From an uncultured Clostridia bacterium (lineage in GTDB: Bacteria > Bacillota > Clostridia > TANB77 > CAG-508), in assembly GCA_944386385.1 (NCBI GenBank), contig CALXAV010000003.1, positions 19,376 through 83,375 of the forward strand: a stretch of 64,000 bases of DNA, in the 5' to 3' direction. Each line of letters opens with the position of its first letter. The first letter of the stretch is position 1. Below are positions 8,867-17,878 of the stretch, one piece after another. Position numbers and translations under genes: made by a program. The notes below the pieces were generated by a model. It ran no database searches. It was not told where the DNA came from and was given only the letters and a program-made list of their open reading frames with translations.

Positions 8867-9967
8867 TTATTTAAAGTAAATTGAACTTTTATCATCATTT
8901 TTAAATTTTATCATATCATTTTTTGACTTCAATAATGCCATAACTAAATTCTTAGCAATTTCATCTAACATGATTGCTGCATTTCCAATAACCCAATGGT
9001 TTTCAGTAAATTCAAAATAATCTAATTCATAGTCTTTCATAAAAATTCTCTTATACTTTTGTATTTCTTTTTCATAATTCTTAAAATCTCCATGAACTAG
9101 CTTTGATCTAATATCATATATACTGCATGCAAATTTTTCCATATTATTTTTTATAATATCATAATCTCCATTATAAAAATACTTTAGCTTTTTCTTTAAT
9201 TGATTTCTTATAGAATCTTTTGGATTAACTAATATCATTTCTATTATGTAAAATGGCGATAAGAAATGTTGGTAATGACTTGTTTGTTCTATTAAATGAT
9301 CCATAATAAAATCTAGTTTATAAAAATCAGATTTTTCTTCTATATAACTATCTATAGCACTTTTAAAATTAAATATTTCTTCTTTATTGTTTTTTACATC
9401 TTCATCATTATTTTGGGACTTATATATGGAAAAATTCCCATTCTTTTGAATTTTTAACTCCAGTCCTGATAAAATATGTAAAAAGCTATTTGTCCCAAAT
9501 AAAGAATCTCTTTCATCATCATGTAATATTCCTGTAAAGTTTTTTTCACTCATACTTGGTAACCAATTTTGTAGCATTGATATTTTGTGTTCTAATGAAT
9601 ATTCATCTATTTGCTCAGAATGTAATCTTTTTTCATCAAACTCATCATAAATAGTTCCTTCTATATCAAATTGTACTAACATTACAATTTTATTTAAAAT
9701 CTCATTAATACAATCTTTTTCATCACTCTTACTACTTATATTAAACATTCCATTCCAATATGAATCCATTAATATTTTCTTTATATCATACTCTTTCTTT
9801 TCCCATTTTCTAGAATGTTTTTTCTCTTGAGAAAGATTTTTATATAACATTTTTTTAATTCTTCCATAATATCCATCTCTTTTTAAAGGATTAACTAAAT
9901 ATAAACCTAATTTTTCACTTAGACAAATCGGTTCATTAATTTCACAAAACATATTATAAATAACCAT
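8867..9967 (-). CDS. HEPN-motif protein (366 aa from ATG 9967), first gene of the island operon
   Basis: The C-terminal region IYDIRSKLVHGDF contains R-x4-H. The codons AGA TCA AAG CTA GTT CAT at 9109->9092 were verified. I preferred ATG 9967 with GAAGGA upstream over the TTG at 9985. Confidence 0.55.
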   Translation of the reverse strand: MVIYNMFCEINEPICLSEKLGLYLVNPLKRDGYYGRIKKMLYKNLSQEKKHSRKWEKKEYDIKKILMDSYWNGMFNISSKSDEKDCINEILNKIVMLVQFDIEGTIYDEFDEKRLHSEQIDEYSLEHKISMLQNWLPSMSEKNFTGILHDDERDSLFGTNSFLHILSGLELKIQKNGNFSIYKSQNNDEDVKNNKEEIFNFKSAIDSYIEEKSDFYKLDFIMDHLIEQTSHYQHFLSPFYIIEMILVNPKDSIRNQLKKKLKYFYNGDYDIIKNNMEKFACSIYDIRSKLVHGDFKNYEKEIQKYKRIFMKDYELDYFEFTENHWVIGNAAIMLDEIAKNLVMALLKSKNDMIKFKNDDKSSIYFK

Positions 9968-10213
9968 TATATTTCCTTCTTTCAAAATAATTATAGCATC
10001 CTTTCTTATTTTATTCTACATTTTTAGCTTATTTATATTACATTTCATCCAGTATTTTTATGTTTTTTATATATTCTTTTATGAATTTTATTGCAATCTT
10101 TGAAAGTATCTAAAAATAAGCAAAAATAGCTGGTAATTTATCAAAAAATACTATATAATACACACAAATACTCTCCCTTCCATAGTTATACTTGAAAGGA
10201 GGTGAAATAAGTA

Positions 10214-11407
10214 ATGGCTGGGAGTATAGAAAAAAGAGGAAAAAATAGTTACAGGTTAACGGTATCAGAAGGATTTGACCTAAACGGAAAACCAATGATA
10301 CACAGAAAGACTATTCATGGAACTAAAAAAGAAGCAGAAGTTGAATTAGCCAAATTTGTTACTGAAGTACAAAATGGTTTAGTCATAGATGGTAAATCTC
10401 TTAAATTTTCTGAATTTGTTGAAGTATGGAAAAGAGATTATGGCTCAAAAGAATTAGCTCCTACAACATACAAACGATATTGTAGAATGTTAGAAACAAG
10501 AATTTTACCATATTTCGGACATTTCTATATTAACAAAATCAGACCAACTGACATTATGAAATTCTATGATTTGCTTGAAAAAGATACTCAACTAGTTAGA
10601 AAAAAAGGTAACAATGGTTCAAAAACTAAAAAGCCTTTATCTGGCAAAACTATTTTAGAACATCACAGATTATTAAGAGCAATGCTCCATAGAGCAGTTT
10701 ACTGGCAATTAATTGTAAGTAATCCTGCTGAGCGTGTTCAACCACCTAGAGCTAAAAAACCTAAAAGAAGATCTTATGATGATGAGCAAACTAAAATATT
10801 ATTAGAAAACTTAGAAAAACTTAATGTAGAAGATACTAAATATAAAGTTGCTATCATCCTTACTATCTTTACAGGTGTTCGTTTAGGTGAATTGATGGGC
10901 TTAGAATGGCAAGATGTTGATTTTAGAAATGGAATTATAAGTATTAACCGTTCTAGTCAATATCTATCAGATATGGGAGTATTTACTAAAGTTCCTAAAA
11001 CAGAAAGCTCCATTAGAGAGATTGCAATACCCGAATTTATCATTTCTTTGCTTGAGGAATATAAGTTATGGTATGAAGATCAAAAATCGCTATATGGCGA
11101 ATTATGGACGAATTCTGATAGGTTATTTGTACAAGCTGATGGCAAACCAATGCATCCTTCTTCTATAAGCAAATGGTTTGTTAAATATGTAGGTACAATA
11201 GGACTACCTGTAATTAATTTTCACGGATTAAGACATACAAATGCAAGTTTACTAGTTGCACAAAATGTTGATATAGCTGTTATTTCTGCAAGACTAGGTC
11301 ATGCACAAATAAGTACAACACTTGACTTTTATGTACATCCACTACTTTCTCATAATAGAAAAGCTGGATATGCACTAGAAAACTTACTATTACCAACAAG
11401 GTCTTAA
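10214..11407 (+). CDS. int: Tyrosine-type site-specific recombinase/integrase
   Basis: N-terminal arm-binding-type region (SIEKRGKNSYRLTVS). Catalytic signatures are TGVRLGEL, HGLRHT and LGHAQISTTLDFYVH. RBS AAAGGAGGTG lies upstream. Confidence 0.92.
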   Translation: MAGSIEKRGKNSYRLTVSEGFDLNGKPMIHRKTIHGTKKEAEVELAKFVTEVQNGLVIDGKSLKFSEFVEVWKRDYGSKELAPTTYKRYCRMLETRILPYFGHFYINKIRPTDIMKFYDLLEKDTQLVRKKGNNGSKTKKPLSGKTILEHHRLLRAMLHRAVYWQLIVSNPAERVQPPRAKKPKRRSYDDEQTKILLENLEKLNVEDTKYKVAIILTIFTGVRLGELMGLEWQDVDFRNGIISINRSSQYLSDMGVFTKVPKTESSIREIAIPEFIISLLEEYKLWYEDQKSLYGELWTNSDRLFVQADGKPMHPSSISKWFVKYVGTIGLPVINFHGLRHTNASLLVAQNVDIAVISARLGHAQISTTLDFYVHPLLSHNRKAGYALENLLLPTRS

Positions 11408-11704
11408 TTTTACTTTTTTCTAATTTTCACAAATTACAAATTTTCACGATATTAAAAAAGTAAAAAACTTTGAGATTTTATATCTCTTTCCCAAAAGTTT
11501 TTTACTTGTAGATTTTTATAAAAATTATAAATTTATAGTAAATTTTTTATTGAATTTTTATTAGAATTTCGGGCATTTGAGGTGGTTATTTTACCCAATT
11601 TTTACCCGATTTGACATAATAGTGTTATTTTCAAGCATTATTGCAACCAGTTTTCAAGCAATAAAAAATCACTAAAATCGTTACAGTTCTAGTGATATAA
11701 ACGT

Positions 11705-11750
11705 TGGTTGCGGGGGTAAGACTCGAACTTACGACCTTCGGGTTATGAGC
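11705..11750 (-). other. Truncated initiator tRNA-fMet (3' 46 nt: anticodon loop to CCA); putative att core
   Basis: The minus strand reads GCTCATAACCCGAAGGTCGTAAGTTCGAGTCTTACCCCCGCAACCA. It has a CAT anticodon loop, the CCC of the initiator-type anticodon stem, a T-arm, the acceptor 3' strand and CCA. No 5' half follows; 11751 onward is AT-rich non-tRNA sequence. Confidence 0.7.
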
Positions 11751-11774
11751 TATAAAATATTTATTATTAAAATT

Positions 11775-12272
11775 TTATCTTTCTTCATCTTCCACGTTTT
11801 TTACTAAAACTGTTCTCATATTGTTTCTTTTTCCTCCATGTACATCGTCAAGTAAATCATTTCCTATAACAAGTACTTTATCTGGTGGTAACTCCATCTT
11901 TTCGCAAGCCTTTCTAAAATTTCTCTTTAATGGTTTTAGAGCAAAACCTATGTAATCTATTCCTCTTTCTCTAAAATACTTTTCTATTTTTTTATCTACG
12001 CCGTTACTCAAAACTATAATTTTAAATTTTCCTCTCAAACTTTCAATCCAATCTTGATTGTACTTTGGGATATTTTTCATTTCTTTTCTTAGAGTATCAT
12101 CAACATCTAGAATTATTCCTTCTATTCCATATTCTTGCTTTATTCTTTCAATTTCATCTTCAGTCAATTCTGTAACTTTATCTATTGTTATATCTGGTTT
12201 TACAATCTTTGATAATACATAGTGTGCTAAGTCAATTATTTTGTCACCTATAATATCTTCTATTCTTCTCAT
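11775..12272 (-). CDS. YqeG-family HAD phosphatase
   Basis: Motifs ILDVDDTL (DxDxT), VLSNG and GNDLLDDVHGG. I preferred ATG 12272 with GGGAGAG upstream; the track ORF starts at GTG 12302. Confidence 0.75.
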   Translation of the reverse strand: MRRIEDIIGDKIIDLAHYVLSKIVKPDITIDKVTELTEDEIERIKQEYGIEGIILDVDDTLRKEMKNIPKYNQDWIESLRGKFKIIVLSNGVDKKIEKYFRERGIDYIGFALKPLKRNFRKACEKMELPPDKVLVIGNDLLDDVHGGKRNNMRTVLVKNVEDEER

Positions 12273-12399
12273 GAACTCTCTCCCGTTGATTATATATTTC
12301 ACAATATTATATCATATTTTCAAAAAATTTCCAGATTAGAAATAAGTAATGTTTAGACTTTTTCTATCGTTTATTGTATTATTAGTATAGGAGTAAAAT

Positions 12400-14007
12400 A
12401 TGGAAGAAGATAAAAAGTTATATAAAGAATTTTTAGATGGAAATAATGAAGCATTTAATAAAATAATTAGTAAATATGAGAAAAATCTTATTTACTTTAT
12501 AACACGATATGTAAAAGATATAGATATAGCACAAGATATTTACCAAGATACGGTAATGTATTTATTAGAACATAAAGAAAAATATGACGATAAGTATTCT
12601 CTAAAAGCTTATCTTTATCTAATTGCTAAATCACGAGCTATAAACTATTTGAACAGTAAGAAAAGAAATGTACCTCTAGAAAATTATGAAAATACTTTGC
12701 AAGAAGAAAAACTTTTAGAAGATATTATCTTTTCTAAAGAAAGACAAAAGAAAATAGAAAAAGTAATTAGAAAGATGAAACCTGAATATCAGTTAGTAAT
12801 TTATTTAACTAAGATAGAAGGGCTATCTTACAAAGAAACTGGAATCATTATGGATAAATCAGAAAAGCAGATAAAAAATTTAGTATTTAATGCTACTAAA
12901 AAATTAAAGAAATTATTAGTACAAGAAAAAATAATTGAAATAAAAAACAATAAAATTATAAGACTACTTTTATGGTTTATAATTATTACAGTTGCTATAT
13001 CTTCATTAACATATGCAGGATTTGTTATCTATGAAAAATATAAAGCAAGTTTAATGCCTACATATACAAATGAATTTGATAATAGTGAAAAAAATAATAT
13101 GTGGATTTGTACCTTTAATCTTGCTTGGAATGAATTCATGGCTCAAAGATTTGGCGGCCCTGTAGAATTTAAAGAAGGTAACTCTGAATTAGTAAATTCT
13201 TTAAATCAAAAAAATTTTACTAAAGACCAATTATCTTCTGATGATTATTATATAAAAGTAGCTGAAACATCTCCCAAATTAAAAGAAGTAATTAAAACTG
13301 ATATACAAAACAAATTTAACATAGACGAAAGCTCTTCATTGGATAAGATTAATTTTAATTTACCAAACAGTTATACAATATACTCTTTCCTATATAAGAA
13401 ATTTACATTTCCAGAACCTTTTGATATACTTCTTCCTGACAAGTTTGCAAACTCAGAAGAAAATGTTAAATACTTTGGAATCGATAGCTCTTCTTCTAAA
13501 GATTTAAGAGACAATGTTGAAGTTTTATTCTATTATGATAATGATAATTTTGCTGTAAAATTAAAAACAGTAAATAATGAAGATGTTATCTTGGCTAGAA
13601 TAGAAAATAGTAATTCTTTTGAAGAAACATATAACAAAATTAAAGAAAAAGAAGCTTCTGAAACTAACCACACTTTTGGAGAATCTGATACATTAAAAAT
13701 ACCAAACTTAATTGTAAATAATTCTATTATCTATGATGAATTATGCTATAAAGAATTAAAACCCAACGCTAATAATATAAATTATATAACTTCTGCTGTC
13801 CAAACAGTTAATTTTACATTAAATAATGAAGGTGGAGAAGTTTTAAGTAACAGTGTTACACAAGATATTTCTAAATCACAAAATCTTATAGAAAGGTCTT
13901 TCAATTTTACAGATGAATTTTTCTTGTTTTTAAAAGAATCAGATAAAGAAAAACCATATTTATCATTAAAAGTAGATAATATAGATTTAATGGAAGAAAC
14001 TAAATAA
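12400..14007 (+). CDS. ECF-type sigma-70 family factor fused to a TM helix and an extracytoplasmic serpin-like domain
   Basis: aa 1-180 carry sigma region 2 (DIAQDIYQDTVMYLL...YLYLIAKSRAINYL) and region 4 (LVIYLTKIEGLSYKETGIIMDKSEKQIKNLVFNATKKLKKLL). The TM helix is aa 187-211. aa 233-527 are collinear with serpin landmarks (see finding). Confidence 0.7.
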   Translation: MEEDKKLYKEFLDGNNEAFNKIISKYEKNLIYFITRYVKDIDIAQDIYQDTVMYLLEHKEKYDDKYSLKAYLYLIAKSRAINYLNSKKRNVPLENYENTLQEEKLLEDIIFSKERQKKIEKVIRKMKPEYQLVIYLTKIEGLSYKETGIIMDKSEKQIKNLVFNATKKLKKLLVQEKIIEIKNNKIIRLLLWFIIITVAISSLTYAGFVIYEKYKASLMPTYTNEFDNSEKNNMWICTFNLAWNEFMAQRFGGPVEFKEGNSELVNSLNQKNFTKDQLSSDDYYIKVAETSPKLKEVIKTDIQNKFNIDESSSLDKINFNLPNSYTIYSFLYKKFTFPEPFDILLPDKFANSEENVKYFGIDSSSSKDLRDNVEVLFYYDNDNFAVKLKTVNNEDVILARIENSNSFEETYNKIKEKEASETNHTFGESDTLKIPNLIVNNSIIYDELCYKELKPNANNINYITSAVQTVNFTLNNEGGEVLSNSVTQDISKSQNLIERSFNFTDEFFLFLKESDKEKPYLSLKVDNIDLMEETK

Positions 14008-14021
14008 AAGAGGGTGTTATT

Positions 14022-14978
14022 ATGAAAAAATTAGGAATTGTTTTTATTATAATTTTATTTATTGTTCTATTATTAGTATTTATCTTTTATAATTTTTATA
14101 TAAAAGATTCTAATAATAATGTAAGTAATAATATAGATGGCAATAACACTATTAATACAGTATCTTTAGAAGAAAAATCTCTTGAAGATTTATCTATAGA
14201 ATATTCTTTAGATGATGCTATTTCTGATGGTTGTTTTGTTGTTGGATATAATGTAAATTATAATGAAGAAAAACTAGAAAGTTTTATCTCTAACATAGAA
14301 AACAAAACACCTGATAAAATAAGAATTGCATTTTCAACACCTGAAGGAGATACTATTTTAGTTGATATCATTTTATCTAATGATGGAAAAATATTATTTA
14401 GACAAGATAATAGAAGAGATAATTTTTCATCTGAAGAAGATAGAATTATTTCAGAACAAACTCTATCTGTTAATGATTATAGAATTGTAGAAGATATTTT
14501 AGGTGAAAGTAAAACTCTTTATTTCGAAAATAGAAACGAAGATTTCTCTAGCAGAATATTTATTTGTAGCTGTTTTTATAATATTTCTTATAATTCTAAT
14601 TTTGAACTAATTTTTAAATCAAGAAAAGATTTAGGAATGAAAACAGTAATAGAAAAAGGAACTTACCTAGATTACAATATTTATACTTTTGGAGGAAATG
14701 TCTTTGTAAAAATCAATGATGAAGAATTACCATTAGAAGATGCTATAAAACAAAACAAGTTAAATCCTCAAGATATTGTAGATAATTGTACAATAGACGT
14801 AAAAGAAAATAAAAATAATGTTAATTCTGATGAAGCAAGCGACGGAGGAACACGTATCTATAGATATTCATCCGCTTCTCCTGAAGGTTATTCTATAATA
14901 AAACGCCACACACTTGATGGAAATAGAGATTTATATATTGGTGTTCCATATATGGATTTCAATGATATAAAGAAATAA
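14022..14978 (+). CDS. Membrane-anchored hypothetical protein, co-transcribed with the sigma fusion
   Basis: N-terminal TM helix (LGIVFIIILFIVLLLVFIFYNF). It starts 14 nt after the upstream stop, with AGAGGGTG as RBS. Possibly DUF4362-like (IRIAFSTPEGDTILVDI), but that is a weak call. Confidence 0.45.
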   Translation: MKKLGIVFIIILFIVLLLVFIFYNFYIKDSNNNVSNNIDGNNTINTVSLEEKSLEDLSIEYSLDDAISDGCFVVGYNVNYNEEKLESFISNIENKTPDKIRIAFSTPEGDTILVDIILSNDGKILFRQDNRRDNFSSEEDRIISEQTLSVNDYRIVEDILGESKTLYFENRNEDFSSRIFICSCFYNISYNSNFELIFKSRKDLGMKTVIEKGTYLDYNIYTFGGNVFVKINDEELPLEDAIKQNKLNPQDIVDNCTIDVKENKNNVNSDEASDGGTRIYRYSSASPEGYSIIKRHTLDGNRDLYIGVPYMDFNDIKK

Positions 14979-14999
14979 GACAGGATTTATTCCTGTCTT
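14977..14999. terminator. Bidirectional intrinsic terminator hairpin
   Basis: AAGACAGGA-tttat-TCCTGTCTT, between convergent genes. Confidence 0.6.
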
Positions 15000-17245: not shown

Positions 17246-17878
17246 TTATTCTACTTTACCCCATTTATCTAATGGCCAAATTCTAATTGCTACTGTACTT
17301 TCTATTTTCTCTAATGGGATACATCCAAATGCTCTACAGTCTTTACTATGATTTCTATTATCACCCATTGCAAATACACAATTTTCCGGTACAACAAAAT
17401 CATCAAATCCTGCACCTATAACATCTGTTACTATTCCATCTTGTAAATATGGCTCATCTAACTCTTCATCATTAATATATACTTTACCATCTTTTATTTG
17501 AACATGTTCTCCCGGTAGAGCTATAACTCTTTTAATATAACTTCTCTTTCCTATTTCTAAAAAGTTTTTAACAAACCATTCCCAACCATTTCTTTCTTCA
17601 TATTGCGCTACTGGATTAGCTTCATCTATTTCAGAAGCTGAATAATCTATTTTAGATGGTTCTTCAAATGTTATTATTTCTCCTCTTTCAGGTAAAGTTT
17701 TTGTTGTTCTTCCCCATCTATTTAGCCATAATCTTTGATTTTGTTCCAAAGTTGGATACATTGAACTCATCTGAACAACTGTTGGTGTTCCTATAAAATA
17801 ACGAAATAACATTGCTAAGACCAATGCAATTATAATACAATATACCCATTCTAACACTTCTTTAACTGTTGAATTCAA
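17246..17878 (-). CDS. lepB: Signal peptidase I
   Basis: TM anchor, catalytic Ser box SSMYPTL, KRVIALPGE, and GDNRNHSKDCR. Confidence 0.9.
   Translation of the reverse strand: MNSTVKEVLEWVYCIIIALVLAMLFRYFIGTPTVVQMSSMYPTLEQNQRLWLNRWGRTTKTLPERGEIITFEEPSKIDYSASEIDEANPVAQYEERNGWEWFVKNFLEIGKRSYIKRVIALPGEHVQIKDGKVYINDEELDEPYLQDGIVTDVIGAGFDDFVVPENCVFAMGDNRNHSKDCRAFGCIPLEKIESTVAIRIWPLDKWGKVE

Follow-up and report, generated by a model that had tools for sequence, protein, structure and literature searches.

We report here that a gene in a 64,000-nucleotide stretch of DNA from an uncultured Clostridia bacterium (GenBank assembly GCA_944386385.1, contig CALXAV010000003.1, positions 19,376 to 83,375; hereafter the window) encodes a protein in which a sigma factor of the extracytoplasmic function (ECF) type is connected, through a single transmembrane helix, to an extracytoplasmic domain that, as judged from profile comparisons and structural modeling, is very probably a highly divergent and cut-down member of the serpin fold. 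We refer to this domain as the mini-serpin. Sigma fusions tethered to the membrane are a known kind of protein, and so are serpins; their combination, and the family of serpin-like proteins below the Pfam threshold to which this ectodomain belongs, appear to be undescribed.

Evidence for a serpin fold in the ectodomain

Single-sequence searches left the ectodomain without an assignment: Pfam and NCBIfam reported no family, and phmmer against the sequences of the Protein Data Bank (PDB) found nothing at E ≤ 10. The Pfam Serpin model (PF00079; gathering score 27 bits) did not match the window protein at E ≤ 1. Sub-threshold matches to positions ~300–364 of the 370 positions of this model were obtained for three relatives, the proteins of clusters P0122 (21 bits, E = 2.3e-4) and P0136 (16 bits, E = 7e-3) and that of locus L035 (19.3 bits); P and L numbers denote protein clusters and loci throughout. 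The link to serpins was revealed only by profiles and by structure prediction. A profile built from 23 family sequences and run against 177,635 PDB sequences gave 15 matches, all of them serpins, namely antithrombin (E = 0.011 upwards, the best value of the search) and PAI-1. Family positions 246–312 were thereby aligned to residues 356–422 of antithrombin, a segment that comprises s5A, the hinge, the reactive-centre loop (RCL), s1C and s4B.

The comparison with hhalign of a 155-sequence family profile with an alignment of four serpins (alpha1-antitrypsin, ovalbumin, PAI-1 and antithrombin) yielded E = 3.2e-6 and a probability of 87.9% over 95 columns. This alignment runs from the "lPk" motif of s6A to s5B and is collinear throughout (s6A, hI, s5A, hinge, RCL, s1C, s4B, s5B), its significant part being the C-terminal ~100 residues only. 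Among the four serpin sequences, only alpha1-antitrypsin was confirmed as a full-length match to PF00079 (424 bits). When the narrow 23-sequence profile was compared with just alpha1-antitrypsin, the match was weak (E = 3.5e-3, probability 9%); this comparison is superseded by that with the 155-sequence profile. A greedier alignment remained collinear over 289 columns, with fair confidence in an hF-like helix and good confidence from s6A onward. It reproduced five of the six collinear serpin motifs that a preliminary description of the window, made from the sequence alone, had pointed out; the N-terminal s6B/hB pairing was not recovered. As a set, these six motifs go beyond what chance would produce.

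An AlphaFold2 model of residues 212–535 reached a predicted local distance difference test score (pLDDT) of 91.6 and a predicted template modeling score of 0.80; the underlying alignment was shallow (39 sequences), and the five models spanned pLDDT values from 78 to 92. When the model was compared with the PDB by Foldseek, 123 matches were found at E ≤ 1e-3, and the top 50 were all serpins (E = 3e-10 to 5e-7, probability 1.0). The template modeling scores of these matches were moderate (0.40–0.59), and the best target-normalized value (0.59) was obtained with CrmA, a minimal viral serpin. Hence, the proposal of an extracytoplasmic serpin-like domain is borne out by Foldseek, by hhalign and by the PDB profile search. 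The Pfam Serpin profile itself fails to match the window protein; the profile of its family does match serpins.

The sigma factor and its membrane tether

Pfam, TIGR02937 (sigma70-ECF; 83 bits versus a cutoff of 42.9 in an NCBIfam scan of the 535-residue protein) and the list of open reading frames (ORFs) agree with the earlier assignment of the N-terminal part to the ECF sigma factors. No NCBIfam equivalog or subfamily cutoff was reached by the protein. Pfam sees regions 2 and 4 only, with regions 1 and 3 absent, which is the layout of ECF (group 4) sigma factors. The match to Sigma70_r4_2 (PF08281) spans residues 118–169, and region 4 ends near residues 170–173. Beyond Sigma70_r2 and Sigma70_r4_2, the 535-residue protein contains no credible Pfam match. 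The one transmembrane helix had previously been placed at residues 187–211, and the Kyte-Doolittle analysis confirms it, with slightly wider limits (Table 1), as the sole hydrophobic segment of the protein. The linker between region 4 and this helix is only about 14 residues long and leaves no room for an anti-sigma domain. Since the sigma part must be cytoplasmic, the ~320 C-terminal residues lie outside; export of the ectodomain is independently supported by stand-alone family members that carry Sec signal peptides or a lipobox. A sigma domain, a transmembrane segment and an extracytoplasmic region are consequently all present in one chain, the combination by which sigma/anti-sigma fusions are recognized.

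Distribution and integrity of the fusion gene

Twelve metagenomic contigs, each assembled independently, encode the identical 535-residue protein, with the same neighbors in the four places that we read closely. A search with the ectodomain returned 172 proteins, mostly of 531–558 residues and equipped with sigma domains. In a scan that used one genome per species, relatives were present in 411 genomes, nearly all of them metagenome-assembled genomes (MAGs) of uncultured gut Clostridia from humans, rabbits, goats and deer. The gene was fused in roughly 60 of the 80 loci that were fetched, and the fusion is kept at 40–50% identity in many species, along with its promoter.

Several departures from the intact single-copy gene were observed. 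An abundant species has a fusion gene that is interrupted by a 1-nucleotide insertion at the W-V-G codons (GTTCGGAAGT versus the expected GTTGGAAGT; L038:5289-6906 on OZ006973.1, a circular HiFi MAG; protein clusters P0067-P0120), resulting in a 245-residue sigma-transmembrane ORF and a 292-residue ORF without an export signal. Since 51 clusters at 90% identity contain the 292-residue form, and one of them, P0084, is found on 49 contigs, we regard this insertion as real and not as a sequencing error; the split form may be either a fixed pseudogene or a switchable gene. Frameshifts within sigma region 4 or the ectodomain were also seen at L004, L015, L064, L067 and L076, which suggests frequent decay or phase variation in this gene family. 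At other loci, two sigma–mini-serpin genes, or one fused and one sigma-less gene, adjoin each other, and some single MAGs carry two unlinked copies. These tandem and unlinked paralogues (L007:5353-8576, L031:3728-7296, L037:3380-6966; also L015/L042 and L030/L065) indicate lineage-specific expansion.

A conserved promoter motif precedes the fused genes

Upstream of position 12400, an ECF-type promoter motif emerged from an alignment of the sequences that precede 60 fused genes. The -35 element occurs in these regions as TGAAAC, TTAGAC, GAAAAC or TAyAAC and is followed by a T-run and by TGTwT exactly 16 nucleotides past the AC. The window promoter likewise has exactly 16 nucleotides between AC and TGT and ends 17 nucleotides before the ATG start codon. 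A strict version of the pattern ([TG][TGA]A[GA]AC-TTT[TC]N12-TGT[AT]T) was present in 40 of the 60 upstream regions, every time with the 16-nucleotide spacing, versus 0.085 occurrences expected in shuffled sequences. It occurs 38 times in 915 kb of fetched DNA; 36 of these copies immediately precede a sigma-fusion gene, and one precedes a tandem paralogue. The copy in front of the window gene is the only one in the 64-kb window. The AAC-N16-TGT motif resembles the promoters of Bacillus SigW, which read TGAAAC-N16-CGTA. With its general form xxRAC-N16-TGTwT, it also shows the traits of autoregulated promoters of ECF sigma factors, namely an AAC at -35 and a short -10 containing G and T, set at constant distance.

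The window promoter could also be read as a sigma-A promoter (TAGACT-N17-TATTAT, 9 of 12 positions). We prefer the ECF reading because other clades retain AAC-N16-TGT without any TATAAT-like -10 element. The conservation of this promoter, and its near-exclusive occurrence in front of fused genes, argues for a working sigma factor that would be autoregulated.

Split versions and the wider mini-serpin family

At three loci (L035, L068 and L078) the unit is split into a homologous sigma gene and a separate downstream gene for a membrane protein that consists of a cytoplasmic N-terminus of 40–60 residues, one transmembrane helix and the same mini-serpin ectodomain. The stop of the sigma gene and the start of the membrane-protein gene overlap by 8 nucleotides in L035. 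This arrangement is that of a textbook sigma/anti-sigma pair, and the mini-serpin thus forms the extracytoplasmic module of both separate anti-sigma-like proteins and fused sigma factors.

The domain family as a whole is far larger: 2,937 clusters at 50% identity were matched at E ≤ 1e-3, and 634 at E ≤ 1e-30. Most of the best 150 clusters are proteins of 330–400 residues without a sigma domain that possess a Sec signal, a lipobox or a signal anchor. The 411 species genomes with relatives are mostly those of uncultured gut Clostridia and Gastranaerophilales. None of the family members that were checked has a Pfam domain over the mini-serpin region, and the few that public sources name at all are labeled "hypothetical" or "uncharacterized."

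Other domain combinations were encountered within the family. The domain is fused to ankyrin repeats in P0245 and P0251, is preceded by Sel1 repeats in P0198 and occurs together with DUF3221 in P0186; P0237 shows a weak match of a fused part to a ThsB/TIR-like region. By eye, P0198 has no obvious export signal, and its location might be cytoplasmic. Extended variants of the sigma fusion of 625–697 residues were found at five loci. At four of them (L028, L036, L039 and L054), the extension (residues ~535–697) consists of a long Asn/Thr-rich linker of low complexity and a DUF3221-like module of ~70 residues, for which the Pfam matches were below threshold (L028, L039); the fifth, L052, has a shorter C-terminal extension without a Pfam match. 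We rejected the Rosetta-stone idea that the DUF3221-like extension is a relative of the DUF4362 protein encoded next to the window gene, as phmmer found no match between them and hhalign gave E = 0.55; no extension, that of L052 included, proved to be a relative of this protein.

Size, hinge and loop of the mini-serpin

With ~300 residues versus 370–400 in serpins, the mini-serpin is 70–90 residues short, and the full set of serpin elements (hA–hI, sheets A–C) was not found. No space is left for hA ahead of the s6B-like strand; the hC-like helix is followed, after only 13 residues, by another strand; 14–29 residues separate the helix at domain positions 81–95 from s3A; and the segments at the expected positions of hD/s2A/hE (or hF) are short family-wide. 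The lost elements are probably hA and the hD-s2A-hE region, an assignment that we make with low confidence.

In the alignments to antithrombin and alpha1-antitrypsin, G478 occupies position P15, and K492-S493 correspond to P1-P1'. The hinge of the RCL had been located at nucleotides 13828–13902 in the preliminary description; its position is matched by our alignments, but its residues depart from the inhibitory consensus. Among the 155 family members, P15 is Gly in 150, P14 is G/V/A, P13 is K/N/E, P12 is L/V/I, P11 is K, P10 is S (136 sequences), P9 is E (137), P8 is A (124) and P6 is I/M. The family hinge from P17 to P9 reads E/N-x-G-G/V/A-K/N/E-L/V/I-K-S-E, the pattern of an amphipathic strand that is buried on one side; the corresponding consensus of inhibitory serpins is ExGTEAAAA (PMC8233489).

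Beyond the hinge, P5-P5' (residues 488–497) form the most variable 10-residue stretch of the domain (3.56 bits versus a mean of 2.18 with a standard deviation of 0.97), and the segment from P6 to P7' varies in length from 7 to 19 residues across the family. The elements that follow the loop, an s1C-like R-x-F-x-F motif, s4B and s5B, are strongly conserved in the 155 sequences. Taken together, the conserved hinge, the hypervariable stretch at the place of the bait region and the conservation of the C-terminal strands make up the classic serpin picture. An invariant Gln of the family is aligned by hhalign with the serpin shutter position that we take to be His334 of alpha1-antitrypsin.

Genomic context in the window

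The window DNA is low in GC content, about 22–36% in 2-kb windows. Positions of the features discussed here are collected in Table 1. As proposed previously, the gene for a membrane-anchored partner protein (14022–14978) begins 14 nucleotides past the stop codon of the fusion gene and is probably co-transcribed with it; its product combines an N-terminal transmembrane segment with a DUF4362 domain. This partner is clade-specific: its gene follows that of the fusion in none but the closest relatives (L002-L006, L008, L009 and L040), and only 32 homologues of the protein were found. In other clades, the Asn/Thr-rich linker and DUF3221-like module described above are appended instead. Across the 80 loci, no other conserved neighbor was detected. 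The AlphaFold2 model of the partner was poor (pLDDT 55), and Foldseek found nothing for it at E ≤ 1e-3, with template modeling scores of at most 0.25.

Table 1. Features of the fusion gene and its immediate surroundings in the window.
Feature	Position	Strand	Basis
Predicted ECF-type promoter: -35 TTAGAC (12353-12358), T-rich spacer, -10 TGTATTAT (12375-12382)	12353..12382	+	Conserved motif
Shine-Dalgarno sequence AGGAG, 6 nucleotides 5' of the start codon	12389..12393	+	Read from the sequence
Gene for the sigma/transmembrane/mini-serpin fusion, 535 residues, ATG start	12400..14007	+	ORF list; identical product on 12 contigs
Sigma-70 region 2, residues 23-89	12466..12666	+	Pfam PF04542 Sigma70_r2, E = 5.4e-11
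Sigma-70 region 4, residues 118-173	12751..12918	+	Pfam PF08281, E = 1.5e-8; PF04545, E = 1.6e-6
Single transmembrane helix, residues 184-212	12949..13035	+	Kyte-Doolittle 19-residue windows >1.6 solely there
Predicted extracytoplasmic mini-serpin domain, residues 233-535	13096..14004	+	AlphaFold2, Foldseek, hhalign, PDB profile search
Hinge and RCL equivalent, residues 476-501, P17 to P9'	13825..13902	+	HMMER and hhalign alignments, column statistics
Hypervariable, length-variable loop, residues 488-498, P5 to P6'	13861..13893	+	Column statistics, AlphaFold2
Membrane-anchored partner, 318 residues, N-terminal transmembrane segment, DUF4362 at residues 80-146	14022..14978	+	Pfam PF14275, E = 8.4e-10
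Terminator hairpin that also serves the convergent ASCH gene	14977..14999		9-bp stem (4 GC pairs), followed by a T-run on the minus strand

The operon is preceded, at a distance of about 1 kb, by a gene for a tyrosine recombinase of the phage integrase family (10214–11407, plus strand), which is adjoined by an ORF of 372 residues without a Pfam match (8867–9985, minus strand). L081 has the same integrase. Together (8867–11407), the two window genes may mark where an integrated element ends. Positions 10001–14000 have a GC skew close to zero, whereas the values on either side are strongly negative (-0.14 to -0.42); this fits the location of the integrase gene and of the sigma operon on the plus strand of a region coded mostly on the minus strand.

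At a distance of 2.3 kb downstream, an ORF of 210 residues (17246–17878, minus strand) has, by eye, the look of a type I signal peptidase (GDNRNHSKD motif). In the SigV pathway, signal peptidase makes the site-1 cut of RsiV. The proximity of the putative signal peptidase gene to the operon may well be coincidental, since it sits among housekeeping genes (holB, PSP1).

How the fusion protein might signal

In the reading that is best supported, and to which we give an even chance, the fusion protein is a one-polypeptide transmembrane signaling device whose sigma factor is released by regulated proteolysis. Our analysis shows the domain architecture and topology, a serpin fold (as a prediction), the conserved and specific promoter and the split sigma/anti-sigma-like versions; we infer the inactivity of the sigma factor in the tethered state, the nature of its signal and, by analogy with characterized systems, its proteolytic release. 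Tethered sigma/anti-sigma fusions that are activated by regulated intramembrane proteolysis are represented by IutY, which is processed via Prc and RseP, and, by prediction, by ECF48/52/53 (PMC8999054). In the resting state, the sigma2–sigma4 part of the fusion protein would reside in the cytoplasm, be held at the membrane by the single transmembrane helix and thereby be hindered in its work with RNA polymerase, with the mini-serpin ectodomain serving as the sensor of an extracellular cue. A signal at the ectodomain, most likely an attack on, or binding to, the hypervariable RCL-equivalent loop, would lead to a first cut or a destabilization outside the membrane. An intramembrane (site-2) protease would then cleave the transmembrane helix, and the freed sigma domain would activate the AAC-N16-TGT promoter of its own gene, so that the response is amplified and the DUF4362 partner and any further regulon are expressed.

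Within this general scheme, a protease that cuts the hypervariable loop is a plausible and, to us, the most attractive cue. The specific chain of events, in which a cut in the loop (residues ~488–498; K492-S493) alters or destabilizes the serpin fold, licenses intramembrane cleavage and frees the sigma factor, is in our estimate rather unlikely; the cutting protease is proposed to be one of the host or of a competitor in the gut lumen. If it proves true, the hypervariability of the loop would tune which proteases each species senses, and the protein would be the first serpin-fold receptor and part of a direct protease-sensing sigma pathway.

Several of our findings weigh against the general scheme. 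Pfam detects no anti-sigma domain (ASD, zf-HC2) between region 4 and the transmembrane helix, and inhibition by the tether alone is for this reason assumed. The neighborhood yielded neither a site-1 nor a site-2 protease, and further promoter copies that might reveal a regulon were not found, with essentially none in the 6-kb flanks of the 80 loci. The hinge (~ExGGKLKSE) agrees with ExGTEAAAA of inhibitory serpins at P15 and partly at P17 only. AlphaFold2 predicts the segment P15-P2 to be already inserted, as a 14-residue strand (pLDDT 94–97) that is paired with s5A and followed by a poorly defined return loop of 15 residues (pLDDT <50 at residues 495–497), and the best Foldseek matches are nearly all cleaved, latent or polymeric serpins with an inserted loop. 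Because of this insertion and of these matches, the predicted state of the ectodomain looks latent-like. If the inserted loop is indeed the ground state, there would be no spring-loaded transition for the protein to exploit.

These structural predictions favor what we consider the main alternative, namely a tethered sigma device whose mini-serpin has its loop inserted for good, as in a latent serpin, and acts as a hyperstable, non-inhibitory scaffold that senses a ligand or a protein by binding. We hold this to be possible, if on the doubtful side. It would resemble the binding of lysozyme by RsiV and that of steroids by hormone-carrier serpins. The distribution of residues in the predicted strand is in keeping with such a scaffold: P12, P10 (S), P8 (A) and P6 (I/M) are buried, P13 (K), P11 (K) and P9 (E) are exposed, the exposed charges are strongly conserved in a hinge that is off the inhibitory consensus, and the length of the s5A-s4A turn is fixed in all 155 sequences. 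However, the inserted state stems from a single prediction with the shallow alignment and the spread of models described above; the strongly conserved s1C-like R-x-F-x-F motif is not obviously needed by a latent form, in which s1C peels off; neither a ligand-binding pocket nor a binding partner was identified; and a hypervariable loop is equally expected for a protease bait.

The remaining explanations are less likely. That the sigma factor is active while membrane-bound, as a one-component regulator in the manner of ToxR and CadC whose ectodomain modulates activity through oligomerization or conformation without any proteolytic release, strikes us as improbable. Membrane-bound one-component transcription factors are an established class, and neither an anti-sigma domain nor a dedicated protease gene was found in the locus. 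However, a holoenzyme could hardly form in the space that the 14-residue tether would leave, the versions split into two genes imply that a free sigma factor is normally restrained by a membrane protein, and the characterized tethered fusion IutY is released by proteolysis (PMC8999054).

Still less probable is a role of the ectodomain primarily as a surface inhibitor or decoy of proteases that shields the envelope, with the sigma factor coupling its consumption to resynthesis. The predominance of stand-alone secreted or anchored proteins without a sigma domain among the best 150 family clusters is as expected for inhibitors, and serpins directed against host proteases are known from gut bacteria in the form of siropins and miropin (PMC5127057, PMC8233489). 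Against this stand the hinge, which lacks the Ala-rich P12-P9 segment and the Thr/Ser at P14 that fast loop insertion needs, the already relaxed state of the predicted structure and the poor stoichiometry of an inhibitor that is present in one copy per sigma molecule.

Finally, the notion that we deal with a chimeric assembly or a functionless, decaying pseudogene, for which the frameshifted relatives (L004, L015, L038, L064, L067 and L076) might be cited, is effectively refuted by the intact and identical ORF on 12 independent contigs and by the conservation of fusion and promoter across species.

Comparison with known systems

With the serpin superfamily (PF00079), including CrmA, miropin, siropins and thermopin, the mini-serpin shares the predicted fold, the collinear C-terminal elements, the Gly at P15 and a hypervariable loop at the position of the bait region. 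It differs from these proteins by its size, its score below the Pfam threshold, its altered hinge, a loop predicted to be inserted without cleavage, and its attachment to the membrane and to a sigma factor.

In Firmicutes, the ectodomain of the anti-sigma factor acts as a receptor in the SigV-RsiV (Bacillus, Clostridioides) and SigI-RsgI (Clostridium thermocellum) systems. A single-pass membrane protein, an extracellular sensor domain and an autoregulated ECF-type sigma factor are common to these systems and to ours, and the two-gene relatives at L035, L068 and L078 possess exactly their layout. RsiV is the subject of PMC4183432. The ectodomain, however, belongs to another family, and the sensor is covalently fused to the sigma factor in the window.

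IutY of Pseudomonas putida (ECF243) and the actinobacterial ECF48/52/53 proteins (e.g., SCO4117) likewise combine a sigma factor, a transmembrane segment and an extracytoplasmic sensing region, and proteolytic release is the expected mode of activation for them as well as for the fusion protein (PMC8999054). They carry, however, an anti-sigma module (FecR-like or zinc-finger) before the membrane, where the fusion protein has only its short linker; their ectodomains serve carbohydrate binding or TonB signaling, whereas that of the fusion protein has a predicted serpin fold; and the fusion protein occurs in low-GC gut Clostridia, unlike its counterparts.

Among the C-terminal extensions listed in the ECF classification 2.0 are SnoaL-like, TPR, Cys-rich, multi-transmembrane, DUF1835 and other types, and serpins are not mentioned (PMC7826278). 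A phylogeny of the serpin superfamily makes no mention of sigma or fusion proteins, and the word "transmembrane" appears in its reference list only (PMC8233489). Full-text literature searches that combined serpin with "ECF sigma" or "anti-sigma" returned unrelated papers only, and those for serpin-like sensor domains returned nothing relevant. The remark in the preliminary description that its author did not know of a serpin-fold sensor agrees with the ECF, serpin and wider literature that we searched.

Biological meaning

The known roles of serpins are those of a soluble suicide inhibitor or a carrier, and their employment as an extracytoplasmic sensor module of a sigma or anti-sigma system is a use that is undescribed in the literature we found. 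A receptor with a serpin fold would come as a surprise to specialists in either field. At the same time, our analysis exposes a large family below the Pfam Serpin threshold, whose cut-down serpins are either secreted or anchored in the membrane, or else are joined to sigma factors, ankyrin repeats or Sel1 repeats. Should the loop be constitutively inserted, the family would be a natural instance of a serpin fold that is locked in its relaxed form and put to new use as a scaffold. If the loop instead serves as a protease bait, it would provide gut commensals with a simple way to sense host or microbial proteases, and the sigma factor, transmembrane helix, bait and cognate promoter would make up a compact part for engineered protease biosensors.

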